This document shows, piece by piece, positions 11,915 through 51,045 of a DNA stretch of 60,317 nt. The notes under the pieces were generated by a model. That model had not been told where the DNA came from. It made no database searches and saw nothing but the letters and a program-made list of their open reading frames with translations. The position numbers were made by a program, and so were the translations under genes. How positions within the stretch are numbered: the first letter of the stretch is position 1; every line of letters starts with the position of its first letter. This DNA comes from a virus. Its lineage: Duplodnaviria; Caudoviricetes. Location: positions 1 to 60,317 of the IMG/VR virus record IMGVR_UViG_3300050120_000105; one strand, 5' to 3'.

Positions 11915-12558
11915 CCCGGAACCCGATAATCAAGCACCCGGAGCCGGTACGGGATCTCCTGCCAGCCCCGGTTCCCACCGGTGGCGTTCCAGGCCATCAA
12001 CTGACCATTCACGACCCGTGACACGATCGCGACGTGTCCCCCGCCCCGGCGTGAGGATACGATCACGGCGCCGGGTACAGGTCCGCCGGCCGACCTTCCC
12101 CAGTGCAGATAGGAAAGGGCCGCCGCAGATCCGGTGCCCCGGATGCCCCGTTCTGCCAACGCCGAGCCTACATTTAGGGCGCAGGCCAGTCTTCCTGCGA
12201 TATAGCGAGCCGGCCGTCCGATGGCGGAATCGAACGACCCGTAGGATACCGTTTGCCGGGCCACGGTTGGCCGCGTAGCCGTCCAACTACGCGGCGCGAA
12301 GCCGCTACTGCGCGACGCGAAGCCGCTATGCGCAGCGCCGTGCGTAGCGCTGTGGCTTCTGCCGGTATATCTTGCGGGCTGCTGCTGGGACGCTCCGAAC
12401 AGGCAAAACAGGTCGGCGCAGGCCGGTTGCGCAACGCGCTGATAGTGACGGTGATGATGGTGGTGATACGTATAATGCTGGTGATGCCGGTGCCGGGCTT
12501 CTGCCGGCGAAAGCAGGCATAGCGATGCGCATACTGCCAAGAGCAGATATTTCAGCAT
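11911..12558 (-). CDS. Secreted CHAP/NlpC-like (TIGR02594-type) amidase with His-rich N-terminus
   Basis: ACALNV, ALSYLHWG, PGAVIV, GGGHVAIV Cys-His motif; carries 66-bp nested element in frame. Confidence 0.7.
   Translation of the reverse strand: MLKYLLLAVCASLCLLSPAEARHRHHQHYTYHHHHHRHYQRVAQPACADLFCLFGASQQQPARYTGRSHSATHGAAHSGFASRSSGFAPRSWTATRPTVARQTVSYGSFDSAIGRPARYIAGRLACALNVGSALAERGIRGTGSAAALSYLHWGRSAGGPVPGAVIVSSRRGGGHVAIVSRVVNGQLMAWNATGGNRGWQEIPYRLRVLDYRVPG
12287..12352 (+). mobile_element. 33-bp palindromic mini-element, two nested copies (inner copy 12308-12340)
   Basis: CTACGCGGCGCGAAGCCGCTA[CTGCGCGACGCGAAGCCGCTATGCGCAGCGCCG]TGCGTAGCGCTG. Confidence 0.85.
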
Positions 12559-12608
12559 GTCGATTTCCTTAAAATGGTGCCGGGCGGTACAGCGCCCGGT
12601 CTTTGTCG

Positions 12609-12929
12609 TCAGGCGGCCGGCGGGGGAATCGGAACGCCAGTTGCTGCGGTGAACGCGGTATGCATCGCCGTAGTCGCGTCAGTGATTTGCTGGGTCAGCG
12701 CGACAATCGCTGGATTCTGGTTGGATTGAGCATTGATCTGCGCCACGAGCGCAGCGATGTCGGAAGTGCCTTCCTGTATAAACGCGGCAACAGACGTTTT
12801 CAGGTCATCGATGGCAGCCATGATATTTTTCTCCATGAGGGCGAGCTGATTTTCGATAGCATCAAGGCGGCGCACGACCTCGGAAACCGCATCGATGTAA
12901 GGATGATGATGGATGTGCAGAGTCACCAT
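12609..12929 (-). CDS. hypothetical coiled-coil protein
   Basis: Helical composition, lysis-region position. Confidence 0.65.
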   Translation of the reverse strand: MVTLHIHHHPYIDAVSEVVRRLDAIENQLALMEKNIMAAIDDLKTSVAAFIQEGTSDIAALVAQINAQSNQNPAIVALTQQITDATTAMHTAFTAATGVPIPPPAA

Positions 12930-13102
12930 ATTCAGTTATTTTCCGTAGATGGTTCCAAAGATGATGCATAATGCGACTACGACCAGTGTGCCGATGAGAA
13001 TGACAACGCTCGCTTTGCGTTCATGCATGTCAGCAATCCTTGCAGATGCTCTCTGGCGCGGGAGGATAAGGCCGCAGCGGATCGATCTGAGACTGATGCG
13101 GC

Positions 13103-13351
13103 CTAACGCTGGTAGCCTGTGGGAAAGTAGAGCGGGCCACCCCCAATGCCCACGACTGAGAGAATCCATGCCACGATAGCGATGACGATCAGCAGGCCTA
13201 CGAAGATCTGCCCCCATTTGTAAACGTTGGCATCGATCGACCATCCAAGAAAGCTCGTGATCAGCCACACGATCGCATAGGCAACTATGCAAACGCCGGC
13301 GATATAGAGCAGCAGATATAGAAAACTGAGTAGAACGCCGCCGAGTGCCAT
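13103..13351 (-). CDS. Small 2-TM membrane protein (holin-like)
   Basis: AAGGAG RBS; two hydrophobic helices. Confidence 0.7.
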   Translation of the reverse strand: MALGGVLLSFLYLLLYIAGVCIVAYAIVWLITSFLGWSIDANVYKWGQIFVGLLIVIAIVAWILSVVGIGGGPLYFPTGYQR

Positions 13352-13484
13352 TGCATTTCTCCTTAGATCATCGCCTCAAACCAAAGATAAAACAGGTACA
13401 GCGTGACGCTCAGATACCCGAGCCAGAAGCATGAGCATGTGATGTATTCGTTTGCTGTCGTCGGTCGGTCAATGCGCATTTCGC

Positions 13485-13685
13485 TCATCCTTTGATGTGC
13501 GGGAATGCAGGCTCGATCGATATCCAGTAGTATTGGCCGTCTACCCAATCGAGGCGGTCCTTGAGCAGATTGAAAATCGCGGTCTCGTCCTGCGACGGCG
13601 GCCCGTTTTCCTTGGTCAGAAAAACCTGGACGATGCCATCGAGCCCGCGAACGCGGTCGCAGCGAAATTTCAGGAGGGGATGCAT
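13485..13685 (-). CDS. hypothetical protein
   Basis: Follows 13688 stop directly. Confidence 0.5.
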   Translation of the reverse strand: MHPLLKFRCDRVRGLDGIVQVFLTKENGPPSQDETAIFNLLKDRLDWVDGQYYWISIEPAFPHIKG

Positions 13686-13687
13686 GG

Positions 13688-14296
13688 TCAGTGATGCGTA
13701 AATGTTATGATCAACGCAGCGACCGCAACTAACATAGAAATGATAAAAGAAGCTCCAACAGCCAACGCACCGATCGAACTGACGCCTGCGGTCTTGCCCC
13801 TGTTCTGTCCTTCTCCGGTATCAAATCGCGTCTTCAAGTCAGCGATCTTGTCGTCAAGGTTCTTCTGGACTGACTGCAACAGCGATTCACCCTTGTTGAT
13901 CAGAGTGGTGAAGTTGTTTTCCATCTTGTTGATGGCAATGCTGTTGCTTTCGTTGGTCGCTCCAGCCGCTTCCTTCTGTGCCTGCAACGCCGCCGCGATG
14001 GCGGTTTTGTCTGCAATGGAAAGCTGCTCGGTTCGCTTGTCCCGCTCCACGAACTGTTTCTCGACGCCATCAAACTTGACTTCAAACAGAGTGGTGATGT
14101 GAACGATCGCGGCATCTATCTGTTCTTGACGCCCATCGATATTATGCTGAATCGCCGCAATTGTTCTATCTTGAGCGCCCTGCTGACTTTCCAGCAGTTC
14201 TTTGAGATTATCGATTTCCCGACGAAGATTCTCAGTTGTAAGAATAGACGGGTCAGGATTGGGCTTGCCCCCATTTATCGACTCCTGCTCAGTCAT
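13688..14296 (-). CDS. Coiled-coil protein with C-terminal TM anchor
   Basis: Heptad-rich sequence, C-terminal hydrophobic helix. Confidence 0.75.
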   Translation of the reverse strand: MTEQESINGGKPNPDPSILTTENLRREIDNLKELLESQQGAQDRTIAAIQHNIDGRQEQIDAAIVHITTLFEVKFDGVEKQFVERDKRTEQLSIADKTAIAAALQAQKEAAGATNESNSIAINKMENNFTTLINKGESLLQSVQKNLDDKIADLKTRFDTGEGQNRGKTAGVSSIGALAVGASFIISMLVAVAALIITFTHH

Positions 14297-14345
14297 TTTC
14301 CATTCTCATGACACGAGCCTCCTTATCTACGGAATGACCAGCATG

Positions 14346-14768
14346 TTAGTGCCAGCCAGCCACAATCACGCCAGTCGAGGTTGTTCCAATCAGGACCGGA
14401 GTAGTGGTGGCCATCAGGGTTCGCAGATGCCCCGAGATCGGCCGGGATGCCATCGCAAACCGATGGGCTGCTGCCGGCGGCGTAATAACACCAACCACCG
14501 CAGTTAAAGCTGCAACAATCTGATTGAACAGCACCGATCCCACAGTGACCGCCGCTGCGTAACCTGGACCCGCAATTGACGCCGCCGCCGCCATAATGCT
14601 TTCGATAGTCGGAACGTATTTTCCCAAGTTTGCAACTGCTGACTGGATCGATCCAGCGACAGTCGCCCATTGGGTCTGGAAAGCGGAAATCTGGGCTGTC
14701 GTGCAGCCGGCCATAACGCCCGCACCGATGAACGCGGTCGAAATCAAGAAAGAGCGACGGTTGATCAT
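14346..14768 (-). CDS. Tat-signal lipoprotein
   Basis: NRRSFL twin-arginine motif plus MAGC lipobox. Confidence 0.7.
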   Translation of the reverse strand: MINRRSFLISTAFIGAGVMAGCTTAQISAFQTQWATVAGSIQSAVANLGKYVPTIESIMAAAASIAGPGYAAAVTVGSVLFNQIVAALTAVVGVITPPAAAHRFAMASRPISGHLRTLMATTTPVLIGTTSTGVIVAGWH

Positions 14769-14953
14769 GTGGAAGGTCCTTTCGGGGGTTGTGCAGCATT
14801 GAGATAAGCTGTGATGACCTTTTTCATGTCCGCCATCAGGTCAGAATCGGAAATCACGCTGTTGTAGTTGATCCATCCGGTAGACATGGCAGCCAGATCG
14901 GAACGGATTTCCTTGAAGGCGGCTGCGAGGCCTGTTTGCGATAGTATGATCAT
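14765..14953 (-). CDS. hypothetical protein
   Basis: ATGA coupling. Confidence 0.6.
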   Translation of the reverse strand: MIILSQTGLAAAFKEIRSDLAAMSTGWINYNSVISDSDLMADMKKVITAYLNAAQPPKGPST

Positions 14954-15177
14954 GTGCGTGCTCCGACAGATGAGGAATTTCCAAGACCGGGTGTTATTTC
15001 GACCATGAAGCTAGCGCCCTCATCAGCGTTCACAATAAAACGACAAGCACTTGGCAACTTTCGGTCAGTAGCATTGGCGCTGGTGATGCGGCCAAAACTC
15101 TGCTTTGGCCATTGCTCTTGAAGCCCCTGCACCAGCATTGTCTTCAGCGAGTCTGCATCTAGCGTTGGTTTATTCAT
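14950..15177 (-). CDS. hypothetical protein
   Basis: ATGA coupling. Confidence 0.55.
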   Translation of the reverse strand: MNKPTLDADSLKTMLVQGLQEQWPKQSFGRITSANATDRKLPSACRFIVNADEGASFMVEITPGLGNSSSVGART

Positions 15178-16288: not shown

Positions 16289-16306
16289 GTCAAATATTCC
16301 CTTCCC

Positions 16307-17705: not shown

Positions 17706-17729
17706 GAATGGACTCTCCGGTGCATGTGG

Positions 17730-17993: not shown

Positions 17994-18012
17994 GAAGTTC
18001 TCCTATTTCTGA

Positions 18013-33840: not shown

Positions 33841-35100
33841 CTACAAGCTGTCCAGCGTGGCGACGGCCCATTCGCCTCTTGGCCAAAAATACCCGAAAAG
33901 TACGTCGACACGGTCGACGGCCTGGTCGGTCCCCGACTCATAGACCACCAACGACCGCAGCGAACATCGATCGAACTCATGGCGTGCCGCTTCGACCACG
34001 CCCCTGCCATTGGAGGGCATCCACAACGGGGCAATCACCAGCGACACCGCCTCGCGCTGGAACGCGATCGATTGCCGATAGGTCACGCTGGCATTGGCGA
34101 ATGGTGTGATAACCGCGTTATTCGCAGGCGATGCCGTCACCGTCATGTAGGCCTGCGCGGTATAGGGCAGTCCCGCGTAGGGAACGCTGGATGCCGGCGG
34201 AATCAGCGCCGGATAGATCGGGATCGAGGTCGCCCCGCTAAGCACGTTCGCCGTGACGGTGAACTGGCGTGCGAGACCGGTTGACGCAAACGTGGTGCGG
34301 TTGACGGCGAGAACGCCGGCCACGGTGATGATGTCACCCTGGTTCAGCGTGCCAGACAACGCCGAGGTCGTGATCGCGGTGCCGGTCTGGTTGGCGCCGC
34401 TGACGGTCGCGGTGGTAGCCGATCCCGTCGTATGCTTGATCACCGTCTGGTCCCGGAACATGTCGAAACCGAGCGCGTTTTTCATCGTTCCGGTCATGTA
34501 CTGGCTGGAAATGCGCGTTGCCGGGTTGAACTGCCCAGCGAGTGAAGACACCAACTTGGCATCGGTATGCGGATCATTGGCGAGCTTGCGCGCATCCATC
34601 GTTCCGAGATCGGGCGCCGAGTTGTCGTCGAGCAGCGCACCGGCATTCAGAACCGGGGCCTGGTTGATGGCGAGGATGTTGTTGTTGGCATCGACATTGG
34701 CGGTCGCGTTGCAGATGGCACCCTGAGATGAGAACATCAGGGTCTGGGCGACGTTGCCGGCGAGCTTGTTCATGCGCGGCATGATGAAGCGTTCGCTGTA
34801 GTCCTCGATCGAAAGCGTGCGCTCAGCCGTGGTAAAGGCAATGTCGATGTGGCGCTGGGTTGCGACTGTCAGCACCACCTGTTGCTCGATGGTATCCTGC
34901 AGCGACAATGCCGGGCCGTCGCTCGGCGCATAGTCGTTCGGAATACGAACGCGCAGCTGGGCGCCAATCTTGGCGCCTTCCTGGCCGAAGCGGTCATCGT
35001 AATCGCGATTGACCGACATCATGAACATGTTGGAGTTGAGAAAAAGCGGGACGGAATACCGAGTGATCATGCTCGGCGTAAGCAGGTTATTGCCGGCCAT
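33841..35100 (-). CDS. Major capsid protein (P22 coat/gp5 family)
   Basis: NNLLT, VNRDYD, KIGAQLRVRIP, GDIITVAGV, RVDVLFG. Confidence 0.92.
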   Translation of the reverse strand: MAGNNLLTPSMITRYSVPLFLNSNMFMMSVNRDYDDRFGQEGAKIGAQLRVRIPNDYAPSDGPALSLQDTIEQQVVLTVATQRHIDIAFTTAERTLSIEDYSERFIMPRMNKLAGNVAQTLMFSSQGAICNATANVDANNNILAINQAPVLNAGALLDDNSAPDLGTMDARKLANDPHTDAKLVSSLAGQFNPATRISSQYMTGTMKNALGFDMFRDQTVIKHTTGSATTATVSGANQTGTAITTSALSGTLNQGDIITVAGVLAVNRTTFASTGLARQFTVTANVLSGATSIPIYPALIPPASSVPYAGLPYTAQAYMTVTASPANNAVITPFANASVTYRQSIAFQREAVSLVIAPLWMPSNGRGVVEAARHEFDRCSLRSLVVYESGTDQAVDRVDVLFGYFWPRGEWAVATLDSL

Positions 35101-35397
35101 CGGGTTGGCTCCAAAGATTAGGCGGCGCCACCTCTAAGGGCGCACGGATGAAGGGGGATGCGACACGAACGGTCGCGGTGTCTCTCGCAAGCCCGATTGC
35201 GAGAAAAACGGAAGTGGCGGGACGGAAAACCCGGTTCTCGATATCCGGTTCGGATCGGTGATCATCGTAGCGGCGCGCAGTCACCGCATTATCAGACCTG
35301 CGAAGCTCGCAATAACGCTTGCGAGAAAGAGCGGGTTTCTTGAACCTTGCACCGCGTCGCTGTAGTCGCGGAATTTACCAGCGCGTGCCTCCGTTGA

Positions 35398-35430
35398 CTG
35401 CGCGACGCGAAGCCGCTTTGCGCAGCGCCG
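35398..35430 (+). mobile_element. 33-bp palindromic mini-element copy in capsid leader
   Basis: CTGCGCGACGCGAAGCCGCTTTGCGCAGCGCCG. Confidence 0.85.
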
Positions 35431-35452
35431 TCGACGGAGTTTATAGACTTTT

Positions 35453-35677
35453 CTAGAGTTGCTTCTTGATCGCGATCTCAACGCAGCGCATATGGCGGCC
35501 GAACGAATCCGGCATGATCGCCCATGTGACCTCGTAACCCTCGATGCGCGCCTTCGACATTATGACGCAAATTTGGTCGAGCAGCGGACCTATCTCGGCA
35601 CGTAATTCAGCGGCGATCACTGCATCGGTACGGATCGGCTGGACGTTTCCAGTGTCGTCATCGACGGCTTTCAGCAT
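35453..35677 (-). CDS. hypothetical protein
   Basis: Starts immediately after scaffold stop. Confidence 0.55.
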   Translation of the reverse strand: MLKAVDDDTGNVQPIRTDAVIAAELRAEIGPLLDQICVIMSKARIEGYEVTWAIMPDSFGRHMRCVEIAIKKQL

Positions 35678-37049: not shown

Positions 37050-37310
37050 TGCTAACCAGTCTCCCAACACTGCCGTTTGTCGGGACCTCTCTATCGGAGC
37101 AATGCGGCTTCCGGGAAATGTCAATTCCGTATAATGAAAGGCATCTCTGCGAATTTCTCCGACTTCCGTAAACCAAACGGTCTCGATGATTCCATCTCCC
37201 GAGCCGCTGATTGCCGTGATCGTCATTGTCGGGCCACCACTGTTCAAGCGCGCCGGCCGGCCCTTTCCAATCGCACTTTTGATCTCGTCGAATCTGGGAT
37301 CTGGGCTCAT
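37047..37310 (-). CDS. YodC/DUF2158-like protein
   Basis: LNSGGPTMTI...VWF...F..L motif. Confidence 0.65.
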   Translation of the reverse strand: MSPDPRFDEIKSAIGKGRPARLNSGGPTMTITAISGSGDGIIETVWFTEVGEIRRDAFHYTELTFPGSRIAPIERSRQTAVLGDWLA

Positions 37311-39478
37311 TGCACGCTCTCATCCTGCGAAATATCCGCAGCGTTCGCCTGCTCGATCACATTGAAAATGTGCTGATTGGCCTGCGTACGCACTTCATGC
37401 TCGGCGCGCTGCTGGCTCAGCACATGTTCGACCGCGGCTTCGATGATCACCTTCATGCGACCCGTTTCGGCATCGAATGACTTGACGTCGTTGCGCTCGT
37501 CGCGACCGCGGACCTTCAGCTTTTCCTCGGCCAGCTTCATCATCAGTTCCGAATTCAGCTGCTGGCCTTCGACGATCTGCTGCTGAAGCGCCGCCAGGTT
37601 CGGATCTTGCCCGTCATCAAACAGCCATGGGCTGGTGTGCTTAATCCATTTCTGGACCCGTTCGGCCATCTCCTGGGCGCCGGCGAAGTCGCCGTTCTTG
37701 AGCGCCAGATCGCCCATGATCGCGGTCAGTTCCTTATTCTGGGCGATGATCTGCGTCATCGCGTCCCACGCCTGCTGGCGTTGGGTCGCGTAGTTCGGGC
37801 CGGGATCGGAGAGCACTTCGTATTCGCCTACGAGCGGGTTGAAGATGATCTCTTCGGCGGTATCTTCTTCCTTCTTGATGCGCTGGAAGGCTTCCTTGGC
37901 ATCTGGATCGATGGTGATGATTTTCTTCGAAAGGTCTTCGCCCTCGACGTGCAGGATGCGCTTGGTGTCATAGAGCTTGGGATAGATTCCGATCAGTTGC
38001 TTGGCGAGATACCGGTACATGTCGTACTGGTGCTCGGTGAAATGATAGGTCGCGATGTTGCCGGTGCGCTGGCGGGCGTTGATGGTCTTGTCCGATTCCA
38101 CCCCACGCGGATTCTCCTGCCCTTGGCTGGCCTGCCACTGGCCCGTGACCATCATGGCCCAGCGCTCGGCGTCCTGCATGCCCTGCATGAAGACGGGCGC
38201 GATCTGGGGTGGTTCTACGCGGGTCGGTGCCGTGACCGGCCGGCCCTCTTCGCCTTCCTCCTGGGCCCAATCTTCGAACGCCAGATAGGCATAATCCTCG
38301 ACGTTGGCGTTCGCCCATTCCTTCTCGTTGGTCTCGAAAGCGCGCAACGGACCGACCCATGGCGTCTTGGTCTGCAGCGCACCGAACTGCGCCGAGCCGG
38401 AGGCGTTGTAGTTGAGCAATTGCTGCGGCGACAGCTGGGCGCGCGTATGGCCCTTGCAGTCCATCTGGCCGTTGATGACGGTTTTCAGCCCATAGCAGGG
38501 AACGATCGGGATATACTCGCCGATCCAGCGCGTTTCCGGCTTGTCGCCACGCTTCAGGATGCAATCGCCGCCGATCAGATACCAGTTGACGCTTTGGGTG
38601 ATGACGTCGCGGTATTTGCCCTCGATCTCGCCGCTGTCGATCTTATCGATCGTCATGTCGACGAGTTCTGTGCCCGAATCGGCCTCCATCTCCGAGCGAT
38701 GGCCGCGAAACTCGCTACCGTCCGGCATTTTGAACCAAATCAGTTCGTCGTTCTTGTCCTCGCGCTCGTAATACATCGCCACCAGCACATGCTTATCACC
38801 AAGCCAGAGCGCATCCATGCCGAGCGTCGAGGTGCCGATCTTATTCCTATATTTGCGATGCTCGCGGTTGAAACGGTCGCGCGCCATCTTGTCGAAAACG
38901 AAGCCGAATTGCGCATCACTTGGATCCCCATCCATGAAGACCTCGGGATCGAGGTATACGGTGCGGGGGTCTTTTGCGCCTTTGATATAGACGTCCTGAT
39001 CGAACGACTTGTCATTTACGAAAGCTGTTTCCAGAATCAGGTAGCCGAAACCTCCATCGACCTGATTGGTGATCGCGTTTCGGTAACAGACCGTCGCAGT
39101 CGAAATATATTCGGTGCGCTCGACCAGCATTTGCATGCCTTCGGCCGCATCCGCTGTTGCCTTGCCGCCGGTCGCCCGAACTCGCGGCGACGCCTTGTTC
39201 ATCATCGATTCGTTGATGACCAGGCGATTGTGCGGCTCGATAATATTGATGGTCAGGCACGGTTTGCGCTTGTTGGTGCGGTCTGCGAAGATCTTGTCGT
39301 CCCAGCCATATTGATTGCGGTCGTCCTGGTAGGCGCATTTGGTGTCTTCGAGACTATATCCATACGCTTTGTCGTAAAACTCCTTGCAGCGCAGGAAGCG
39401 TTGCCGGGCGCGGTGAACGATCCGCGCATCGCCGGTCAGTGTCGGATCGTCATCGCCGCCATCGGCCGGATAGGCCAT
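37307..39478 (-). CDS. Portal protein (P22 gp1 family)
   Basis: KPCLTIN, GGFGY, YIPIVP, PQQLLNY, GPNYATQRQ. Confidence 0.92.
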   Translation of the reverse strand: MAYPADGGDDDPTLTGDARIVHRARQRFLRCKEFYDKAYGYSLEDTKCAYQDDRNQYGWDDKIFADRTNKRKPCLTINIIEPHNRLVINESMMNKASPRVRATGGKATADAAEGMQMLVERTEYISTATVCYRNAITNQVDGGFGYLILETAFVNDKSFDQDVYIKGAKDPRTVYLDPEVFMDGDPSDAQFGFVFDKMARDRFNREHRKYRNKIGTSTLGMDALWLGDKHVLVAMYYEREDKNDELIWFKMPDGSEFRGHRSEMEADSGTELVDMTIDKIDSGEIEGKYRDVITQSVNWYLIGGDCILKRGDKPETRWIGEYIPIVPCYGLKTVINGQMDCKGHTRAQLSPQQLLNYNASGSAQFGALQTKTPWVGPLRAFETNEKEWANANVEDYAYLAFEDWAQEEGEEGRPVTAPTRVEPPQIAPVFMQGMQDAERWAMMVTGQWQASQGQENPRGVESDKTINARQRTGNIATYHFTEHQYDMYRYLAKQLIGIYPKLYDTKRILHVEGEDLSKKIITIDPDAKEAFQRIKKEEDTAEEIIFNPLVGEYEVLSDPGPNYATQRQQAWDAMTQIIAQNKELTAIMGDLALKNGDFAGAQEMAERVQKWIKHTSPWLFDDGQDPNLAALQQQIVEGQQLNSELMMKLAEEKLKVRGRDERNDVKSFDAETGRMKVIIEAAVEHVLSQQRAEHEVRTQANQHIFNVIEQANAADISQDESVQ

Positions 39479-40857
39479 TAGCTCGCCATCCAGCCGTGGC
39501 CGTTGCGATCATCCAGCGTCGGCAGTTGCGTGCGCGGCAGCGGCTTCTTTTCCACGATTTTCTTTGTAATCATCGGAAATAGTTCCGTCAGAGCCCAAAC
39601 CAGCGCATCGACGCGATCCGGCGACATTTCCCCGACCATGCCGTTGGGGCCGAAATTGACCATCTCGTCCTCCAGCGCGGCAAAGGTTCCGACGTGACTG
39701 ATGCGACCCTGCGTATAGAGCGCTGCGATCGGTTCGGCCCGGGTCCATTTTCCTTTGGATGCGTGAACCTCCTTGAATGGAACGGTCGGTCGCACCGCCC
39801 GCACCGTGGCCGCGACCATATCACCGCCATTGTTAACTTCGCCGACGATGCAATTGCCGTCGTAACGATCGAAACAGGCCACCGCCATACGAGCCCAGCC
39901 ATTGGGGCTTTCCCGACAGGTTGCATCATCAAGGATGTAGCCGCGGTTATCCTCGCCAACGCCTGCCACGATGATGCCTGTCGCCGCGCCGTCTTCCGGC
40001 ATGTCGTTCTTTTTGGCCGCCGGATCGATCGCAACCACTACGCGCTTCATGATCGGAAGAGGTTTCGGATGTTTGTGACGATCGCGATCTAGATCCGCCC
40101 GTGTCCAGAGCGCATCCGGCACATCGTCGAGGATTTCGGCGGATAGCTCCTGACGGCCGAGCCTTGTTCCTGCATATTTATCAGTGATCGATTTGATGAA
40201 CGACGCCGCGAGATTGGCTTCGTTGTCCGTTGTGACACCGCGCGAAACCAGCGTGGTCGACGCCGCCAGTATCTCCTTCAGGATTGGGATCGGCCGCGGC
40301 GTGGTGGTGACGATCTGCCGCGGATGCTGTCCCAGGCGAAGGCCGAACTGCAACTGGTCCCATGTCTCGCGAGCATACCTGAATTTCGCTAATTCATCAC
40401 ACCAGGCTGCATCGAACTGCGGCCCGCGTAGCTGATCCGGTTCTGTCGCATTGTAGCCGGTGGCGATGGCTCCGGTATGAAACTCAATCCGGATCGGCTT
40501 CTTGGTGATCCTGGGCTTCTGATGCGGCGGAAAGACCGAGAGCAAACCACTCTGGCCGAACACCATAACCTCTTCCAGATCCTTTTGTGTCTCGGCAATC
40601 AGCGCAATACGTGTCGCGCGTTTCGCCGTGACTTCAGCCCGTACCCACTCCGCTCCGCATCGGGTCTTGCCGAAACCACGTCCCGCCAATACCAGCCAGG
40701 TCAGCCAATCGCCTTCGGGTGGCAACTGGTTCGGGCGAGCCCATGCGCGCCAGTTCCAATCGAGACCTTTCAGGTCTTCCGCCAGAATCTCATCAAGTTC
40801 TTTGCGCGCATGCTGTCCCAGCGAGGCGATGAAGGCTTCCACCTCGCCGAGATTCAT
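39478..40857 (-). CDS. terL: Terminase large subunit
   Basis: AGRGFGKT Walker A, LRGPQF..WCDE, TTTP, VAIDPA, SPDRVDA. Confidence 0.95.
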   Translation of the reverse strand: MNLGEVEAFIASLGQHARKELDEILAEDLKGLDWNWRAWARPNQLPPEGDWLTWLVLAGRGFGKTRCGAEWVRAEVTAKRATRIALIAETQKDLEEVMVFGQSGLLSVFPPHQKPRITKKPIRIEFHTGAIATGYNATEPDQLRGPQFDAAWCDELAKFRYARETWDQLQFGLRLGQHPRQIVTTTPRPIPILKEILAASTTLVSRGVTTDNEANLAASFIKSITDKYAGTRLGRQELSAEILDDVPDALWTRADLDRDRHKHPKPLPIMKRVVVAIDPAAKKNDMPEDGAATGIIVAGVGEDNRGYILDDATCRESPNGWARMAVACFDRYDGNCIVGEVNNGGDMVAATVRAVRPTVPFKEVHASKGKWTRAEPIAALYTQGRISHVGTFAALEDEMVNFGPNGMVGEMSPDRVDALVWALTELFPMITKKIVEKKPLPRTQLPTLDDRNGHGWMAS

Positions 40858-40858
40858 A

Positions 40859-41527
40859 TCAGAGCACGCGATACCACACTTTACTGGCTGTGGTGTAGAG
40901 CCAGCAATTCGATGACAGTGTGACAGTGCTCGCCGTACCCGCCGCAGTCGCAACAGGTAGCGAGGTGACCGCAGTGCCGACGATGGTCTGCCCGGTGGTT
41001 CCAACCACGATCGAAGTTGTGGTCAGGACGCCAGTTCCCGCATCGGTCAGACAGAACTTCTGATTCTGCATCGGATTTGGCGGCAACGTGAGGCTGGAAT
41101 AGGTTGCCGTGCCAGCACCAGCATAGATAAAGTTGGAGATACCATCAGCAACCACAACCGCAGCAGTCGTGCCCGTGGTGGTGGCAACGGTCGTTCCGCC
41201 GTAGCCCGTCCCAAGTAAGGTAGAGGGAAGAGTAACCGTCTGCGGATTGACGCCGCTGCCCGGCACCGTATCCATCGGGATCAGTTCGTTGCCGGTCAGC
41301 GTTGGAGGGCCGGCCGGAACGGTCTGGGCGCAAACCCCACTGGCACCGGTGCCCTGACCCTGGCCGGTGGCGCCGCCAAGCGGCGTGCCTGCACCGGTGA
41401 CCGTCGATGCGCAGAACGATGCACCACCGACGATCGGGTAGGTCGAATAATTGCCGGCGCCGTATGCGATCGCCGAACTTACCAAAAGAGCAGCCAAGGC
41501 TACGGCTGCGCGAGTGCGCGTCAACAT
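40859..41527 (-). CDS. Secreted Thr/Gly-rich putative structural protein
   Basis: AGGAG RBS; signal peptide; Cys pairs. Confidence 0.7.
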   Translation of the reverse strand: MLTRTRAAVALAALLVSSAIAYGAGNYSTYPIVGGASFCASTVTGAGTPLGGATGQGQGTGASGVCAQTVPAGPPTLTGNELIPMDTVPGSGVNPQTVTLPSTLLGTGYGGTTVATTTGTTAAVVVADGISNFIYAGAGTATYSSLTLPPNPMQNQKFCLTDAGTGVLTTTSIVVGTTGQTIVGTAVTSLPVATAAGTASTVTLSSNCWLYTTASKVWYRVL

Positions 41528-42949: not shown

Positions 42950-43105
42950 GAAAAGGGATTCCTATGGGATTCTATCGTTGTTCCCCAAAAACGGGCCGCT
43001 CGCGGGAGGGGGCATGTAACGAGCGGCCCTAAGTCTTGGGAGGAAACGCCCCTGAAGGGAGGCGAGCGACCACGATGGGGACCATGAGCGCCTATCTATA
43101 GACAG

Positions 43106-43291: not shown

Positions 43292-43864
43292 CTATACCGC
43301 TTCGACCTGATCCTCGGATAAATCCAACGGGACCATGCGCCCTAAGAGGTTCACAAGAGCGGTGAGTCGCCGCTTGTTGTCAAGCGAGGCGATGTGAGCC
43401 GTCCACATATCGAACGAGTGGCCCTTGATCCGGACCTCCTGGCCGACATAGAACGCCCGCTTGCGCTGGCCCGGCGGGACGTCGAGCAGCATCTCGAATT
43501 TACGGATTTCGCCCAGCATTTTGGGCCGAACGATGACCGGGGCGCTTTCCTGCCTGACATAGCCGATGATGTCGTCGCTGATCTTCTTCAGGCGCGTCAG
43601 ATCGGCTTCGAAATCCGGGATCAGGATCAGGCCAGAAAAGATCGCCACGGTGCGTTCGCGATAGCGGTTCCAGCCCGTTTTGCGGCTGATCTTCTCCTTC
43701 GGCAGGTAGTTGTCGACGCCGCGCTCGGTCAATTTGGCCTCGACAGCCAGTTCCCGGTTCGGACGCACGCGAAGCAGGTAGTGGTGCTTTGGGACAGGGC
43801 GAACGATGCAGGATGGCGGTTCCATGAATTCGATGAAATCCCCGATATGGTAGAGCGCTGTCAT
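43292..43864 (-). CDS. NusG-paralog antiterminator (NGN + KOW)
   Basis: YLLRVRPNRE, YLPKE, IFSGLI, FYVGQEVRIK..F, VNLLGRMVP. Confidence 0.85.
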   Translation of the reverse strand: MTALYHIGDFIEFMEPPSCIVRPVPKHHYLLRVRPNRELAVEAKLTERGVDNYLPKEKISRKTGWNRYRERTVAIFSGLILIPDFEADLTRLKKISDDIIGYVRQESAPVIVRPKMLGEIRKFEMLLDVPPGQRKRAFYVGQEVRIKGHSFDMWTAHIASLDNKRRLTALVNLLGRMVPLDLSEDQVEAV

Positions 43865-43878: not shown

Positions 43879-43911
43879 CTACGCGGCGCGAAGCCGCTAT
43901 GCGTAGCGCTG
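43879..43911 (+). mobile_element. 33-bp palindromic mini-element copy (intergenic)
   Basis: CTACGCGGCGCGAAGCCGCTATGCGTAGCGCTG. Confidence 0.85.
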
Positions 43912-43919: not shown

Positions 43920-45089
43920 CTACTTGAAGTCGGCCATGTCCTGTTCGGTCGGTTCGGGTTGTGGCGGGCCGGTGGTGTAGATTTTGCCCTCGACCGACGG
44001 GGGCCACGGCCAGGGGGCGCGAAAGCCAACAGCTAGGGCCGGGCGGGCCCCGAAGACGCTCGCGTTCAAAAGTTCGGTCCAAGCAGCCACCTGCCGATAA
44101 TCCTCAATCGCGACCCATTTCGAGCTGTCGGCGGCGCCCGCAAAGGCTAGGATTTGAGGGGTGATCTCGCCAGGGTAGGTAATTCTGCCCTTGTGTTCGA
44201 AGGGGCGCGCGCGGGTGACGGCGTACAGCGTCGAGATCGCTTTGCCCTCGGGGCTATCGGCCAAAATTCCAGTCACGCCGCCATGCCGCTGCGTTGGATC
44301 CCGCTTGGCAAATTCAGCCCAGGCCGCGGTTTCCTTCAGGAACAGATGCGCGCCGAGCACATTGGGCGGTTTGCGCTGCGCCTTGCGATAGGCGACGTAG
44401 CCGCGGGCGGCCGACCGGGCGAGGTTTTGTTCCTCGGGCTTGAGCGCCGACCAGACTTGCTGCGCCAACGATTGTCGCAGTATCGGCTCTTGCCAGTCTT
44501 TTTCGAAATCCTTCCAACTTTCATCGATCTCGACCGACCCCCCGGAGGGGGGCTGGGGGGATTCTTCAGGTTCAGGTTCAGAAGTTAGGCCACGTACGCA
44601 GTTAGGTGGCTGCTGGGGGGCTAAGTGGGGGGCTAACTGTTCTTCATCCTCAGAATTTGCAACTTTCCTAGGAGAGGGGCTAATTTCAACGCTTTCGGAA
44701 TTAGAATTTCCTTCTACGGCTTCGACTTTGCCTTCTGCGGCGGCCTCGATCACCTCGGGATCGGCGTCGATCATCAGCCGGATTTCGTCGGTCGTGCGAC
44801 GCCCGCGGCCATCTGCATTGCGGCGCCCGTTTTCATCCAGCCATTGAGGCATCCGGACAACGGCCCCGATGCTTTCCAGCCATATCAGCCGGCGCCGGAC
44901 GGTCTCTGGCGCGAATTCGGTATCCTCGGCGAGCTGCGCGAGACTGACGAAACACATACCTTCGCCGTTGACGTAGAGCGTCAGCGTTGAAAGCACGAGC
45001 TTGGCGTAGGGATTGCGCAGCCGAAGGTTACGAGCCCAGGCATGGGCCTCGTCTGCGGCGATACGGCGTTTGCGGCGGGGATTGGTCAA
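43920..45089 (-). CDS. Replication initiator (N-terminal wHTH)
   Basis: AKLVLSTL, CFVSLAQLAEDTE..ETVRRRL..LE; EPEPEE linker. Confidence 0.75.
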   Translation of the reverse strand: MTNPRRKRRIAADEAHAWARNLRLRNPYAKLVLSTLTLYVNGEGMCFVSLAQLAEDTEFAPETVRRRLIWLESIGAVVRMPQWLDENGRRNADGRGRRTTDEIRLMIDADPEVIEAAAEGKVEAVEGNSNSESVEISPSPRKVANSEDEEQLAPHLAPQQPPNCVRGLTSEPEPEESPQPPSGGSVEIDESWKDFEKDWQEPILRQSLAQQVWSALKPEEQNLARSAARGYVAYRKAQRKPPNVLGAHLFLKETAAWAEFAKRDPTQRHGGVTGILADSPEGKAISTLYAVTRARPFEHKGRITYPGEITPQILAFAGAADSSKWVAIEDYRQVAAWTELLNASVFGARPALAVGFRAPWPWPPSVEGKIYTTGPPQPEPTEQDMADFK

Positions 45090-45588: not shown

Positions 45589-45597
45589 TTGGTTTCG

Positions 45598-46333
45598 GGA
45601 TAGTTCAACTTTGATTCCTCGTTATTAGCATCGGCGGTGTCGGCTAAGTTCCGGATGTTTCGGCTTCGACCTTCGCTTTCGGCTCGGACCGCATGCGTTT
45701 CGCCGCCGCCGCCTCTTCAGCGCGATCGGCTGCGCTCTTGACATGCGACTTGCGGATGCCGTCGATGTCTTCAGTCGGGAAGCGTCCAGTATCGTCGAAG
45801 TCTTCACGCTTGATCGGCTTGATCGTTGGGGCGGGCTCGTCGACTTCCTCCGCAACCGGATTGCCGTCAGTGTCGCGATAGACGCGAACCGGCAAGCCTC
45901 CGAGTTTGAGCACGATCTCGCCATGCGGCGGAACGATGCTTTTGAGAAATTCGACAGCCTCTTCGCGCGCGGCGAGATCGACGGCGAACTTGCCGAGCGC
46001 CATGAACAGCGGCGGTTCTTCGGCCATGCCGATCGCGTGCATATAGGTATCGAGCAGCGCTTCGGCCTGTTGGCGCTTGGCGGGATCTTCCGCACGAAGC
46101 GCGATCAGTTTTCGAATTGTCTTGGTATCGAAGCCGAGGGCCTTGCCGCGCTGGAAGATTTCCTTTTGTTGTTCGCTCAGTTGCTTCTTGCGGTCGATGA
46201 CGCCCTCGATCTCTTCGATCAGGCCGCGCAATTCCTTGCCGCTCTTGGTGCCCTTGCCGATGCTCATAACTTCATCCTTCAGAACTTAGCCGCTGCATTA
46301 CCGTTTCGTCGTGACGCTAAAGTTGTACTGTCC
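45598..46333 (-). mobile_element. Inverted-repeat cassette A (ends 45598-45651 and 46282-46333); cargo GapR-like gene
   Basis: GGATAGTTCAACTT..GGCTAAGTTC / GAACTTAGCC..AAGTTGTACTGTCC. Confidence 0.8.
45644..46267 (-). CDS. GapR/DUF2312-family nucleoid-associated protein with C-terminal extension
   Basis: LRGLIEEIE, KEIF..GK..GFDTKTIRKLIALR, LLDTYMHAIGM. Confidence 0.85.
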   Translation of the reverse strand: MSIGKGTKSGKELRGLIEEIEGVIDRKKQLSEQQKEIFQRGKALGFDTKTIRKLIALRAEDPAKRQQAEALLDTYMHAIGMAEEPPLFMALGKFAVDLAAREEAVEFLKSIVPPHGEIVLKLGGLPVRVYRDTDGNPVAEEVDEPAPTIKPIKREDFDDTGRFPTEDIDGIRKSHVKSAADRAEEAAAAKRMRSEPKAKVEAETSGT

Positions 46334-46344
46334 ATATCTGTCTC

Positions 46345-46871: not shown

Positions 46872-47332
46872 TATACAGCCACTCCCGCGCGCATCTTGTC
46901 GAGCGCAGATCGCCCCGGCATAGGATCGCCGAAAAATCCTCCAGTCAGCCCGCGCTCACGGATGCGGTCGCGAAGCTCCTGGTCGAACACCAGCTTCGAT
47001 TTTGGCGTGAGCGCGATATGGCCGGCATAGTCGATCGTGACCGGACACGGCTTTCCCGGCAGCGGCGCCGGTTTCGGCTTTCGCCTGGGGAGATCCTCGA
47101 ATTCGATCATCAGCGCCACTTCGGCCTTGATGGCGAGCCGTCGCGCCTTGCGTTCGTCGACCCGGCGCTGGGTGCGGACTTCCGACATCATCGACTGGCA
47201 GGTCGAGCGCGGATGGCCGACCTTGCTCACGATATCGTCCCACGGGACGCGGCGACCTTCCAGCGAACAGGTGTCCACGGTGTCGGTCATGTATTTGAGC
47301 TGTTCCGCCGTCCATCGGTTTTCGTAACGCAT
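46871..47332 (-). CDS. hypothetical protein, N-terminal Myb/HTH-like
   Basis: RWTAEQ...W..I pattern; FFGDPMPGRSAL tail. Confidence 0.65.
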   Translation of the reverse strand: MRYENRWTAEQLKYMTDTVDTCSLEGRRVPWDDIVSKVGHPRSTCQSMMSEVRTQRRVDERKARRLAIKAEVALMIEFEDLPRRKPKPAPLPGKPCPVTIDYAGHIALTPKSKLVFDQELRDRIRERGLTGGFFGDPMPGRSALDKMRAGVAV

Positions 47333-47386
47333 TTACTTTTCCTTCCCTGTTATTTCGTTACGATCACCGTGCCCGGCGAAGCCTCT

Positions 47387-47419
47387 CTACGCGGCGCGAA
47401 GCCGCTATGCGTAGCGCTG
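47387..47419 (+). mobile_element. 33-bp palindromic mini-element copy that truncates a gene
   Basis: Exact copy; supplies the TAG at 47405-47407. Confidence 0.85.
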
Positions 47420-47704
47420 TGGCGAAGACGGGTCGCGCAGCGCCATCGCGGCGCCATCGACCAGAAAATTCGCCAGTTGGTCTTTTGTGATTTCGAATTC
47501 GAAAAACACGCCGCCAGCCGATTGAACCTTGACCACGAAGGTATTGCGCAGCGGCTCGGTCAGGTAGAACAGCTTTGCCTTCGGGTAGGCGTAAGGCTCA
47601 CGCGGCGCGTGGGCGTTGGTGAGGATGGTCTTATTTGGACAGTTCAACTTTGATTCCTCGTTATGAGCAGCGGCGGTGTCGGCTAAGTTCTTCGTGCCGG
47701 TCAC
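47405..47704 (-). CDS. hypothetical protein altered at both ends by insertions
   Basis: N-terminus reads through the cassette-B end; C-terminus cut by the 33-bp element. Confidence 0.55.
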   Translation of the reverse strand: MTGTKNLADTAAAHNEESKLNCPNKTILTNAHAPREPYAYPKAKLFYLTEPLRNTFVVKVQSAGGVFFEFEITKDQLANFLVDGAAMALRDPSSPQRYA

Positions 47705-48508
47705 AGTTCAAGTGCCTCTTGCTTTGCGGGCTTCGGCGGTTCGATGAACAAGTCAGGTCGCGCCAGCGCGTCGGTGATGCGGCGGCAGGCGATGTCGAAA
47801 TACTTGGGCTCAATCTCGATGCCGATGAACTTTCGGCCGAGCTTGACGGCGGCAACGCCGGTTGTGCCGGATCCCATGAAGGGGTCGAGGATGGTTTCGC
47901 CGGCATCGGAAAAAAGTTCTATCCACTCTCCGATAAGTTCGACCGGCTTTTGTGTGGGATGTTCGCCACGCGGTGACGGATAGGACCAGACAGCGCGCGA
48001 TCCTCCACCGTTCCAGCGTTTTGTTTCGTCTGCTCTATGGAAAATCGCAACGGCTTCCCATCCCGTCGCAGGCCTGTCGCCAGTAAACTGCGGCGCTCCG
48101 TTCGGCTTAACCCAAATTCCAAATCTCACCAGGGGAAGCCCGCTCGCCTCAGCGACTCCGATATGCCGCCAGTCGCATGTTAGGATGACCCACCTCCGCG
48201 CGATCGAAATCATCAACTCACACAATGTCAGAAAGTCTTCGCGGCTTAAGGATTCGAAATGGATACTGGCGACATTGTCCGCACCGCCGTTTTTTCCGAT
48301 ACGAGTTCGCGCGCCCGCATGAGTAACGGCGTCATAAGGCGGATCAGTCACCACGGCATCGACCTTGCCCAGTGTCGGCAGAATCTCCCGGCAGTCGCCG
48401 AGATAAAGCGTCACGCCTTCCGCCAGATGTTCGACACGATTCATTTTCTGCCTTCAGAACTTAGCCGCTGCCTTACCGTTTCGTCGTGACGCTAAAGTTG
48501 TACTATCC
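47637..48508 (-). mobile_element. Inverted-repeat cassette B (ends 47637-47690 and 48457-48508); cargo DNA methylase
   Basis: Both ends ~95% identical to the corresponding ends of cassette A. Confidence 0.8.
47701..48444 (-). CDS. N4/N6 DNA methyltransferase (beta class)
   Basis: VTDPPY, HPTQKP, LDPFMGSGTT. Confidence 0.92.
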   Translation of the reverse strand: MNRVEHLAEGVTLYLGDCREILPTLGKVDAVVTDPPYDAVTHAGARTRIGKNGGADNVASIHFESLSREDFLTLCELMISIARRWVILTCDWRHIGVAEASGLPLVRFGIWVKPNGAPQFTGDRPATGWEAVAIFHRADETKRWNGGGSRAVWSYPSPRGEHPTQKPVELIGEWIELFSDAGETILDPFMGSGTTGVAAVKLGRKFIGIEIEPKYFDIACRRITDALARPDLFIEPPKPAKQEALEL

Positions 48509-48530
48509 ATATCCAACCTAACGGCGAGCA

Positions 48531-48755
48531 TCATTGCGGCCTCCGCATCTTGCAATCGCATAGCCATTCCATGTGGACGACGTACTGATCATGATGCGGC
48601 ATCTGGACTCGCGGCCGAAGGATGATCCAGCCGAGGCGCAGCCAATCCAGGGCCTGCCAGCGCGGCACGTAATGGATGATGCGGTCCTTCACCGAACGAA
48701 CTCTGCTGATGGCGAAATCTCTCGCGCATGTGCGTAGCTTTTTGCGGGAAGCCAT
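48531..48755 (-). CDS. hypothetical protein (start uncertain)
   Basis: ORF in operon. Confidence 0.45.
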   Translation of the reverse strand: MASRKKLRTCARDFAISRVRSVKDRIIHYVPRWQALDWLRLGWIILRPRVQMPHHDQYVVHMEWLCDCKMRRPQ

Positions 48756-48886
48756 TTATTGGACCGATTGAGCGGAATATGCCGCGAAGGTGCGCGCGGT
48801 CGCGATTTGGCGAATGTCGCTTCCGGCCAGCCCTTGATCCGATCGGCGTTGCGTCGCGCTCCGCGATATTCTGATGCGTGTTTCAT
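48689..48886 (-). CDS. hypothetical basic protein
   Basis: ATGA coupling. Confidence 0.45.
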   Translation of the reverse strand: MKHASEYRGARRNADRIKGWPEATFAKSRPRAPSRHIPLNRSNKWLPAKSYAHAREISPSAEFVR

Positions 48887-50010
48887 GCCGCTTCGTCCTC
48901 TGCGTTTGGCTGTGCCTTGCGCACGGGACTCGCCGTGAACCGGATCGCGTCGTCAGGCTTGGAAAGGGCTTCGCGGCAGCCAGGCGGTATCCAGAACGGC
49001 GCCAGTGGCTGGGCTCCCTTCAACCAGACCAGCCACATGTACGCGGTTGCGGTAGATCCCTCCGGGTCCCATCGCCCCTTGCAGAGATTGACGCGCTCGG
49101 CAAAGAACGCGATCAGCGTCGGCGGTGTGTCCTTGAAGATGCGTTCATAGCGACCGATCGAATCGAGCCATTGCACGCGCATGAACATCGCAATGCCGGT
49201 GCCGACCAGATCGAGCGCTTTCAGCACAAAGGCCTCGCCGAGATCGCCGAAGGGCGGGTTGGTGATGATCCAGTCCGCGCCTCGGAGTATTTCGGGACCG
49301 AGGAAGTCGACAACGCGGTCGCCATAACCATAATCGTGAATGTCGGAGGCGATCACCGAGCGGAAATATTCCCGCAACACTTCGGCCATGTGGCCATCGC
49401 CGCATGCCGGTTCCCACGCGTGCTGCCATTTGCAATGGCCGCGACGTTCGAGGTGCGGGAAAACATGTTCGATCAGCGCGCGCGTAGCCCAGGGCGGCGT
49501 CGGGAAGTGGTCTAGGCTGTCGTCGGGTTCCTGCCGTGAGCCCATGACGGCGCGGGCACTGTTGATGGCGGCCTCGCCGATCCGCATCAGATCCATGGTG
49601 ACGCGGGTCTGGCCGGCTTCCATTTCGTCGCGCCACGCGCCGACGCGCGCCTCAAACTCTGCCGGGGGCACCGCAGCCATCTTTTGGGCATGAGCCGAAA
49701 ACTTATGAGAGACGCCGATATCCTCCAGTTTGATCGGAGAAACCCCTTCCGGTTCGGCAGTGGTTTTGGCTGGAGGGCGGCCGCCCTTATGGAGCCCAAT
49801 GGTCTCTTTTTGCGCGGCAATCATCTGGCCGAATCGGCGCTCGGCGTGAAAACGAATCTCGGCGGCGTCGATTTCGAGGCTACGATCACCGGCGCGCCGA
49901 GCGTATTCCTTCATCGCCACGGCCTTGTCGAGGATCGACTTGACGTCGTCGACGGCCTTGGCCTCGGCGAGCATGATGCGGGCTTGATCGTAGGGGACGA
50001 GATCCGTCAT
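48883..50010 (-). CDS. Adenine-type DNA methyltransferase with N-terminal helical/HTH domain
   Basis: DHFPTPPWAT, WEPACGDGHM, IITNPPF. Confidence 0.85.
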   Translation of the reverse strand: MTDLVPYDQARIMLAEAKAVDDVKSILDKAVAMKEYARRAGDRSLEIDAAEIRFHAERRFGQMIAAQKETIGLHKGGRPPAKTTAEPEGVSPIKLEDIGVSHKFSAHAQKMAAVPPAEFEARVGAWRDEMEAGQTRVTMDLMRIGEAAINSARAVMGSRQEPDDSLDHFPTPPWATRALIEHVFPHLERRGHCKWQHAWEPACGDGHMAEVLREYFRSVIASDIHDYGYGDRVVDFLGPEILRGADWIITNPPFGDLGEAFVLKALDLVGTGIAMFMRVQWLDSIGRYERIFKDTPPTLIAFFAERVNLCKGRWDPEGSTATAYMWLVWLKGAQPLAPFWIPPGCREALSKPDDAIRFTASPVRKAQPNAEDEAA

Positions 50011-50036
50011 CTAGCGAACCTCGCGACAGGTCATTT

Positions 50037-50420
50037 TCAGCCGGGAGGCAGCGCCTCCCGATAGATTTCCTTGCCGGGCACCAAATCCCAGATGTTCCGG
50101 CAGAATGGTTCGCCGTGCGTCATGTCCATCAACCACTTCATGGTGACGCCACGATCCCAAAACCACTCGCCGCGCAGATGGCCTTCGCGCAATTGCTGAT
50201 GCACCAGCGGTTCGACATCCGGCGGAGCCGCGACGACCCCAATAAGTTCGAGTTTCCGCGCGCTGCCAACTTGGAGATCGGAAAGCCGGTGCCAATGGTC
50301 GCGTGAGTATCCGACCTTGATCGCGTCGGCCTCCGCATCGCGGATGAAGTAAACTGAGCCGAGTTCGGTTTCCGCGATCCAGAATTCTCGCAGAGAGACC
50401 AATCGAGTACGCAGGAACAT
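50037..50420 (-). CDS. GIY-YIG-like (T5orf172/Mug113) domain protein
   Basis: VYFI, IKVGYS, RLSDLQ, E..VH, GEWF. Confidence 0.75.
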   Translation of the reverse strand: MFLRTRLVSLREFWIAETELGSVYFIRDAEADAIKVGYSRDHWHRLSDLQVGSARKLELIGVVAAPPDVEPLVHQQLREGHLRGEWFWDRGVTMKWLMDMTHGEPFCRNIWDLVPGKEIYREALPPG

Positions 50421-50742
50421 AACACCCTCGCTGGCTGGCGATACAATCTAAGCGTTTAGCACAGAATGCGGCGATCTTCATGATTAAGGTTGCACTCATA
50501 GGTTTGCACTCGCTCGGGATAAGAACCGTTCGACGACGCACGCAAAACTCATTTACCGGGGACGCAACACAACGCGCAGAAACCGCTCAAAAAAAGCAGT
50601 CAGAAAGGACGTGAGGACCTTCGAAACCGGACGACGTTGGTCGCTTCGGACCGGCGATCGGCCCTGGTGCGCAGCACGTAGCGCAGCGCAAAGTAGGCGA
50701 TGGCGAGGATGGTGAAGGCGGCATAGCCGTAAAGGATCGTGG

Positions 50743-51045
50743 TCATGCGGCCTCCGCGAAACGCTCTGAGGCTTCAAGAATCGACTGGATCAAGCGCCAG
50801 CCGCTTTCAGATGGTCTAAAGAACGGCCCGCGCGGAGATTCTCCGGGCACTTTCCTGTTCCAGATTTCGATCAGTTCACGCCGCCACAGCGGCACCACTG
50901 CGCGGCGCGAAGCCGCTATGCGCAGCGCCGTTGCCTCTCGCTGATCGCGAGTCAGGGTAATCTGACCGCCATTGGAGCAGCAGATCGCGAGATGTTTCAA
51001 TGTCGCGATCTGCCGGTTTGAGAGACGTTCGCCTTTCACAGGCAT
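50743..51045 (-). CDS. hypothetical protein with in-frame 33-bp element
   Basis: Contains TALRIAASRRAV derived from the element. Confidence 0.65.
   Translation of the reverse strand: MPVKGERLSNRQIATLKHLAICCSNGGQITLTRDQREATALRIAASRRAVVPLWRRELIEIWNRKVPGESPRGPFFRPSESGWRLIQSILEASERFAEAA
50898..50930 (+). mobile_element. 33-bp palindromic mini-element copy (in-frame insertion)
   Basis: CTGCGCGGCGCGAAGCCGCTATGCGCAGCGCCG. Confidence 0.85.

Follow-up and report, generated by a model that had tools for sequence, protein, structure and literature searches.

The virus record IMGVR_UViG_3300050120_000105 (Caudoviricetes), analyzed over its whole length of 60,317 bp and referred to here as the window, carries six copies of a 33-bp imperfect palindrome that is very probably a mobile insertion, and the sites it entered are small dyads, opened at their loops, in excess of chance. 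On the + strand the element reads 5'-CTRCGC...GCGYAG-CGCYG, with a six-base stem (CTRCGC/GCGYAG) and an optional inner stem (GCGGC/GCCGC). Five copies are contiguous and differ from one another by 0–3 mismatches (12308–12340, 35398–35430, 43879–43911, 47387–47419 and 50898–50930), and the first of these splits a sixth copy into a 21-nt 5' part (12287–12307) and a 12-nt 3' part (TGCGTAGCGCTG, 12341–12352). All six copies are in the same orientation, on the + strand (2 × 0.5^6 = 0.03). Two subfamilies were distinguished: subfamily A (CTGCGC...GCGCAGCGCCG) comprises the copies at 50898 (reference form), 12308 (with G8A) and 35398 (with G8A and A21T), and subfamily B (CTACGC...GCGTAGCGCTG) comprises those at 12287, 43879 and 47387. 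The change from G3/C26 to A3/T26 that separates them leaves the six-base stem paired and, as a single compensatory event, is by itself weak evidence for structure. Read on the minus strand, two of the three frames of the element are open and the third carries a TAG.

Filled and empty sites were compared locus by locus, four of the six copies lying in coding DNA and two between genes (35398 and 43879). The copy at 35398 occupies the centre of an intergenic hairpin, CTCCGTTGA^TCGACGGAG, about 300 nt upstream of the major head protein gene (33841–35100, minus strand), where the related contigs L009 and L010 read ...CTCCGTCGA|TCAACGGAG... in gene sense, which is exactly the window flanks joined; the element was absent from the relatives retrieved through the head protein. 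The copy at 50898 adds 11 in-frame codons to a conserved gene (50743–51045, minus strand; product of 100 aa), whose 120 listed homologs measure 83–93 aa; 12 were aligned, and all 12 lack the 11 residues. The 33 bp were likewise missing from the homologous gene in 9/9 related viral loci, which read GC(N)A|TGG at the site, and the insertion point falls between the A and the TG of a nearly invariant Met codon. The predicted structure of this product (mean predicted local distance difference test score 55) was too poor for the insert to be placed.

The nested pair at 12287 and 12308 lies in the linker of a CHAP-like gene (11911–12558, minus strand), whose product has a signal peptide, a linker rich in His and, at its C-terminal end, a CHAP-like domain. 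The pair accounts for 22 extra residues, which none of 11 aligned homologs contains; removal of both copies gives back ...RSH-W.... Within the pair, the inner copy entered the loop region of the outer one, at GCCGCTA^TGCGTAG. The copy at 47387 covers the 3' end of a gene (47405–47704, minus strand) that now stops at the TAG of the element, and with the site emptied the frame would continue for 17 more codons to a TAA abutting the next ATG. The conserved core of this protein ends in ...DGAAMALR (13 homologs, 10 aligned) and the tails beyond it vary, so the truncation is read from the frame. The remaining copy, at 43879, lies in the 55-nt spacer between the stop codon (43920–43922) of the replication initiator gene (43920–45089, minus strand) and the ATG (at 43864) of a NusG-like gene directly downstream (43292–43864, minus strand; PF02357, E 1.9e-7). 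No alignable empty site was found for it: replication-protein relatives among viral contigs gave nothing, the matching spacer in contig L126 was too diverged to align, and a DNA search of five related records for the 43879 and 47387 sites returned one short match.

At the three loci where filled and empty sites could be compared, representing four insertion events, no target duplication was present. The six junction strings obtained by removing the copies were exactly those given in the first-pass annotation, which had also placed the element always just before a T. A T does follow all six copies directly (T makes up 0.219 of bases; 0.219^6 ~1e-4), and its presence in the empty sites assigns it to the target, not to the element. 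As 33 nt equals 11 codons, copies in genes keep the frame and survive in linkers, tails and tolerant spots. The De Bruijn contigs of the sequencing runs break at the copies, as they might if the copies were an assembly or chimera artefact of a metagenome contig. Filled sites nevertheless recur with 0–2 differences in contigs of several runs, including run X4, which was not flagged as a source and whose contigs (matching 35282–35510 and 47293–47512) carry the element; reading frames are kept, and removal restores conserved protein and DNA sequence exactly. An artefact is accordingly exceedingly improbable.

With the copies removed, the junctions read AGCC gtccaa^t GGCT (12287), CTCCGT tga^tcg ACGGAG (35398), CCC tt^t GGG (43879), GCC tct^t GGC (47387), GGCA cca^t TGCC (50898) and, for the nested copy, CGC ta^t GCG. 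Little sequence is common to these targets beyond A/T^T, as the first-pass annotation had observed in describing each as a small dyad opened at its loop. The longest Watson–Crick stem enclosing the junction in a loop of 3–8 nt was scored at each site and compared with randomly drawn positions preceding a T in the emptied genome, where P(≥3) = 0.46, P(≥4) = 0.15 and P(≥6) = 0.012. Stem lengths at the five independent sites were 4, 6, 3, 3 and 4 (P(sum ≥ 20) = 0.006; P(all ≥ 3) = 0.021). Folding of 28-mers centred on the junction with DNA parameters placed it within the hairpin loop of the minimum free energy structure at 5/5 sites, and at 6/6 with the nested one, against a null frequency of 0.54 (summed score, P = 0.0015 for five sites and 0.0004 for six). 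With half-windows of 8–20 nt, P ranged from 0.0007 to 0.016, and a comparison with GC-matched random positions, which the first-pass annotation had named as the comparison that could refute its reading, gave higher dyad scores at the true sites (P = 0.0004–0.023). The target dyads therefore exceed chance.

The placement of the junction relative to the dyad was scanned post hoc over ten registers. The highest summed stem (19, P = 0.0006) was obtained with the 3' arm starting one base past the junction, and the runner-up, with the 5' arm ending 3 nt before it (sum 18, P = 0.0007), is close behind because most loops are 3–4 nt long; the other eight registers gave P = 0.01–0.98. The nested copy keeps the same register relative to the 6-bp stem of the outer copy (CTACGC ...cta^t GCGTAG). 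When G·T pairs were allowed, the summed stem rose to 34 on the + strand (P = 0.0001) and to 24 on the minus strand (P = 0.03), and two + strand stems reached 8 bp (CTCCGTTG a^t CGACGGAG and GGTTGCCC tt^t GGGTGATC). The + strand is antisense to all genes concerned, so its folding points to DNA rather than mRNA, and single-stranded DNA is favoured over RNA as the substrate. The first-pass annotation had offered structure-directed insertion into single-stranded DNA or RNA; the dyad enrichment agrees with its structural part and the strand preference with DNA, whereas the better stems on the antisense strand speak against RNA.

At 35398, the place of the target hairpin was folded in nine relatives, just past a small upstream open reading frame (ORF) and 200–290 nt before the head gene. 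Eight of the nine have a hairpin there, of different sequence, with stems of 4–9 bp and in two cases GNRA loops, and contig L007 has only a weak, interrupted 3+3-bp stem; the target at 35398 is therefore a conserved structural feature. When the 35398 flanks are folded together with the element, a single extended hairpin results, at −19.2 kcal/mol (z = −4.0 for the + strand and −1.8 for the minus strand). This composite hairpin, the intergenic position of two copies, the conserved core between complementary but non-identical arms and the one compensatory inner-stem change are what would be seen if the element were an RNA or DNA hairpin module that selection keeps for a function in termination, mRNA stabilisation or protein binding, with the variable closing stem as covariation. 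Such a module would hardly be translated within or truncate conserved proteins, as 4/6 copies do, one of them splitting a nearly invariant Met codon; moreover, the element is at no site in the relatives examined, Rfam has no family match at the copies, and it is the strand antisense to the mRNAs that forms the better stems. Retention as a functional module is thus highly improbable.

Taken with the precise, duplication-free insertion, the nesting and the single orientation, these results incline us, if only slightly, towards a single-strand transposase that acts in trans and chooses its targets by structure on single-stranded DNA. The element is best read as a REP/SDR-like non-autonomous unit that would have been moved in trans via single-stranded DNA. 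It would be a selfish mini mobile element that multiplied inside this phage lineage, the nesting of one copy in another and the two subfamilies being evidence of repeated activity. It would enter small stem-loops of the + strand while that DNA strand is single-stranded; the break would be made within the loop so that a single base, always T, separates it from the 3' arm, which on the minus strand places it just after an A that follows the 5' arm. The terminal inverted bases of the inserted element could then stack on the target stem and lengthen it. Cutting and joining in trans might be carried out during phage replication by a host-supplied HUH/Y1 enzyme of the IS200/IS605–RAYT type, and the uniform orientation of the copies on both sides of the initiator gene would fit a rolling-circle-type, unidirectional replication better than a bidirectional theta mode.

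Six-frame searches of the whole phage for Y1_Tnp (PF01797), the IS110 DEDD domain and tyrosine recombinases (PF00589) were all empty, and there was no transposase among the 40 ORFs scanned against Pfam and the 20 scanned against PHROGs, some small ORFs having been left unscanned. Hairpin loops are known points of replication stalling and switching. Template switching during replication, or break repair at small hairpins, could have copied the palindrome into loops without any enzyme of transposition, and the lack of a transposase in the phage and the near confinement of the element to this genome fit that account. The boundaries, however, are base-identical at six sites, the flank shared between them amounts to at most 1 nt (W before, T after), leaving almost no microhomology, and the single orientation and fixed register look enzymatic. 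An enzyme-free origin is for these reasons quite improbable.

Several observations weigh against structure-directed movement in trans. The independent targets number only five, plus the nested one, and three of their stems are only 3 bp long, a level met by 46% of random positions; the first-pass annotation had itself cautioned that some stems are so short that chance contributes, and individually these three are unremarkable. The emptied sites fold with modest energies (−1.3 to −6.1 kcal/mol), stems of 3–4 bp in coding DNA (4/6 sites) would be barely stable, and the only long conserved hairpin among the targets is that at 35398, an 18-nt palindrome with the copy at its exact midpoint. The element by itself does not fold more stably than shuffled sequence, and the rules for register and strand were found after inspection of the data.

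A sequence preference is present as well. On the minus strand the tetranucleotides before the junction are TCGA, CCCA, GCCA, GCAA, GCCA and CGCA, so that position −1 is A in 6/6 and position −3 is C in 5/6, only the A being constant and the rest weak, and the subfamily B copies always follow CCA. The same mini-element might therefore have chosen its targets by a short sequence (C-N-A^W on the minus strand, CCA^ for subfamily B), much as IS200/IS605 elements enter 3' of a tetranucleotide, with the dyads incidental or a by-product of GC-rich trinucleotides (GCC/GGC), as the three 3-bp stems and the 4/6 sites in coding DNA would allow. The dyad enrichment persists, however, when the null is limited to 2241 W^TNG positions (P = 0.0013–0.0016), the 35398 copy lies at the centre of a palindrome that is kept as a hairpin in relatives, and the nested copy has the same register against a 6-bp stem. 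The short preference cannot be separated fully from structure; as the sole basis of target choice it is a possibility to which we give some weight but which we regard as rather unlikely.

The distribution of the element also counts against structure-directed movement in trans. No true copy was found in 185,579 species genomes (three pattern hits had 6–8 mismatches over 33 nt), an exact-pattern scan of IMG/VR gave 0 copies, and blastn of the 33-mer against plasmids and phages gave none; a hit in a Bradyrhizobium phage (H30) was examined and is not a copy. Among metagenome contigs, 108 pattern stretches yielded one possible copy, with three mismatches, at the end of contig L110. The wider collection of copies proposed in the first-pass annotation thus came to this single candidate across genomes, IMG/VR, plasmids, phages and metagenome contigs. 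Contigs from four peat runs contained no empty-site or new-site variants, a result to be read with the tendency of contigs to drop rare variants. The mobilising enzyme and the donor population are hypothetical, and close kin carrying the element may exist unseen.

In L110 (2630–2719) the possible copy matches 30/33 bases, is followed by T, is non-coding and abuts a palindromic repeat unit (ATTGC...GCAAT); the contig stops 10 nt beyond it, as expected at a repeat. The stretches in L002, L041, L073 and L083 were set aside as codon-level chance, being open coding frames that read REAA(L/M)RS. A perfect palindrome, CTGCGCCAATTGGCGCAG, was encountered in two related phage contigs, L132 (2003–2020, 9321–9338 and 15569–15586) and L133 (7412–7429). 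Two of its copies reach 24 nt when their AGC/GCT flanks are counted, and the window lacks it. Its stem resembles that of the 33-bp element, and it may represent a second small palindromic repeat family.

The element was then set beside known systems, beginning with REPs. According to Di Nocera et al. (2013, PMC3733652), GTAG-tagged REPs have an unpaired GTAG (or degenerate GYAG) tag beside the hairpin. The same authors describe REPs that lie within ORFs or supply them with a TAG stop from their termini, loop termini of GCGG/CCGC in the REPs of Bradyrhizobium, and families of REPs within small palindromes in T. roseum, A. variabilis and H. neapolitanus, all of which have an echo in the window. 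The likeness lies further in the class of 20–40-bp GC-rich imperfect palindromes, in subfamilies with complementary stem changes and in the GYAG end on the minus strand. In contrast to the tag of REPs so described, however, GYAG here pairs with CTRC as part of the stem, and a CGCYG tail follows on the + strand. REPs are also high-copy, chromosomal and mostly extragenic, whereas six copies reside here in a 60-kb phage, four of them in ORFs. Bertels and Rainey (2011, PMC3116915) found evidence of excision for REPIN doublets only; the copies here are singlets, and the empty sites prove precise insertion of a single unit. A cognate RAYT (Y1 HUH) gene is typically flanked by REPs, and no PF01797 match exists in the six frames of the phage. 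Classification as a canonical REP was rejected on the paired GYAG, the phage carrier, the six copies mostly in genes and the lack of a RAYT in the phage, and the element is therefore regarded as a variant of small mobile palindromes rather than a REP.

With the IS200/IS605 insertion sequences and their miniature derivatives, which transpose as single strands ('peel and paste'; PMC3116915, PMC6006769), the element shares the absence of target duplication. Its single orientation (6/6) and hairpin-bearing ends resemble theirs, and its entry after a short motif may do so too: IS200/IS605 elements insert 3' of a conserved tetra- or pentanucleotide on one strand, and here the A at −1 on the minus strand is constant. 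It differs in being a 33-bp single palindrome instead of having separate left- and right-end hairpins, in its weak motif (C-N-A) and stem-loop-enriched targets, and in that no TnpA is present in the phage. Rickettsia palindromic elements (Ogata and Claverie, cited in PMC3733652) are in-frame palindromic repeats in protein-coding genes that stay open. The copies in the window match them in in-frame insertion into open ORFs (+11 aa and +22 aa) but are unrelated in size class and sequence, a likeness and not membership. Rickettsia palindromic elements are roughly 100–150 bp long and chromosomal in an intracellular bacterium, and we know of no hairpin-loop target rule for them.

The nearest precedent for so small a mobile unit is provided by the small dispersed repeats (SDRs) of Nostoc and relatives, which, in work attributed to Elhai et al. 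in 2008, are said to be mobile, 21–27 nt long, hairpin-like, nested and located in otherwise conserved sequence. The 33-bp element differs from SDRs in sequence and host phylum, in its phage carrier and in having copies in frame within genes. Structure- or palindrome-directed target choice has parallels in the insertion sequences that reportedly target REP hairpins (IS1397/ISKpn1 and IS110/IS1111 members, credited to Tobes and Pareja in 2006) and in integron attC recombination, which uses a folded single strand, the tyrosine recombinase IntI and a G^TT crossover in the bottom strand. Both involve full-size elements or cassettes with their own enzyme, in contrast to the 33-bp unit, and the attC system differs further in that the window has no PF00589 match and junctions that read W^T followed by G, C or T rather than G^TT.

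The record has a completeness rating of 100% and a 134-bp direct repeat at its two ends (1–134 and 60184–60317, 98% identical), to be explained either as a terminal repeat or by circular overlap in the assembly. Genes lie on the minus strand from ~3.4 to 53 kb and on the plus strand elsewhere, and include the portal (37307–39478, minus strand), the large terminase (39478–41004, minus strand) and two DNA methyltransferases, both on the minus strand. Further Pfam and PHROGs matches comprised an HNH endonuclease, DUF968, GapR-like and NusG-like proteins, helix-turn-helix regulators, a GH5 domain in a 1525-aa protein and an acyltransferase, and a tRNA search of the phage found none. Homologs of several phage proteins carry Bradyrhizobium or Tardiphaga names, and an Rfam match to RF00519 (suhB/mmgR, an alpha-proteobacterial small RNA) was obtained at 42979–43067 on the minus strand (43.1 bits against a gathering score of 41). 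From the homolog names and the suhB/mmgR-type RNA, the host is likely Bradyrhizobium-like; the sequencing runs holding the phage sequence are peat metagenomes. The RF00519 match, within the phage genome, is located a short way downstream of the gene for the NusG-like protein. That gene had suggested an ops/RfaH-like reading, which was discarded because the motif-like stretch is on the template strand.

Elsewhere in the window, the 1525-aa protein (3991–8568, minus strand) combines a GH5 cellulase domain with a Big_12 domain and may be a tail-associated glycanase; after its gene comes an Acyl_transf_3 gene that runs the other way (8629–9708, plus strand). A family of intergenic repeats of 54–68 nt with the core GAACTTAGCCGCTG ... 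AAAGTTGTACTATCC is present in both orientations in the early region (45598–45651, 46271–46338, 47637–47690, 48446–48513, 56072–56096, 56580–56647, 57084–57142 and 57411–57478) and may serve as promoters or operator modules of the phage. Within the ORF at 51058–51825 (minus strand), positions 51363–51584 hold a long repeat with a 12/18-nt period (GCCGGAGCCGTAGCC...), and similar periodic repeats were seen in the relatives L126, L127, L129, L131, L132 and L134, beside their homologs of the gene at 50743–51045.

The 33-bp singlet bears on the question of whether, and how, single REP-size palindromes move. Its filled and empty sites can be compared to the base, its copies are nested and strand-specific, and its targets follow a geometric rule, with every copy readable in a small complete phage genome, and so makes a compact system for testing single-strand, structure-directed insertion. 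Phage proteins have been remodelled by it, one by 11 and another by 22 added residues, with the tail of a third gene replaced, and a conserved hairpin ahead of the capsid gene has been extended by it. A stronger version, in which the 33-nt palindrome reads stem-loop geometry on single-stranded DNA and not sequence, enters a single base away from the 3' arm, encodes no protein and rides host or phage replication or repair, appears doubtful. If it were true, the element would represent a new class of minimal mobile DNA that colonises a virus genome, including its conserved genes, and would be the smallest element for which targeting by structure has been proven, as well as a natural template for inserting DNA at hairpin addresses.

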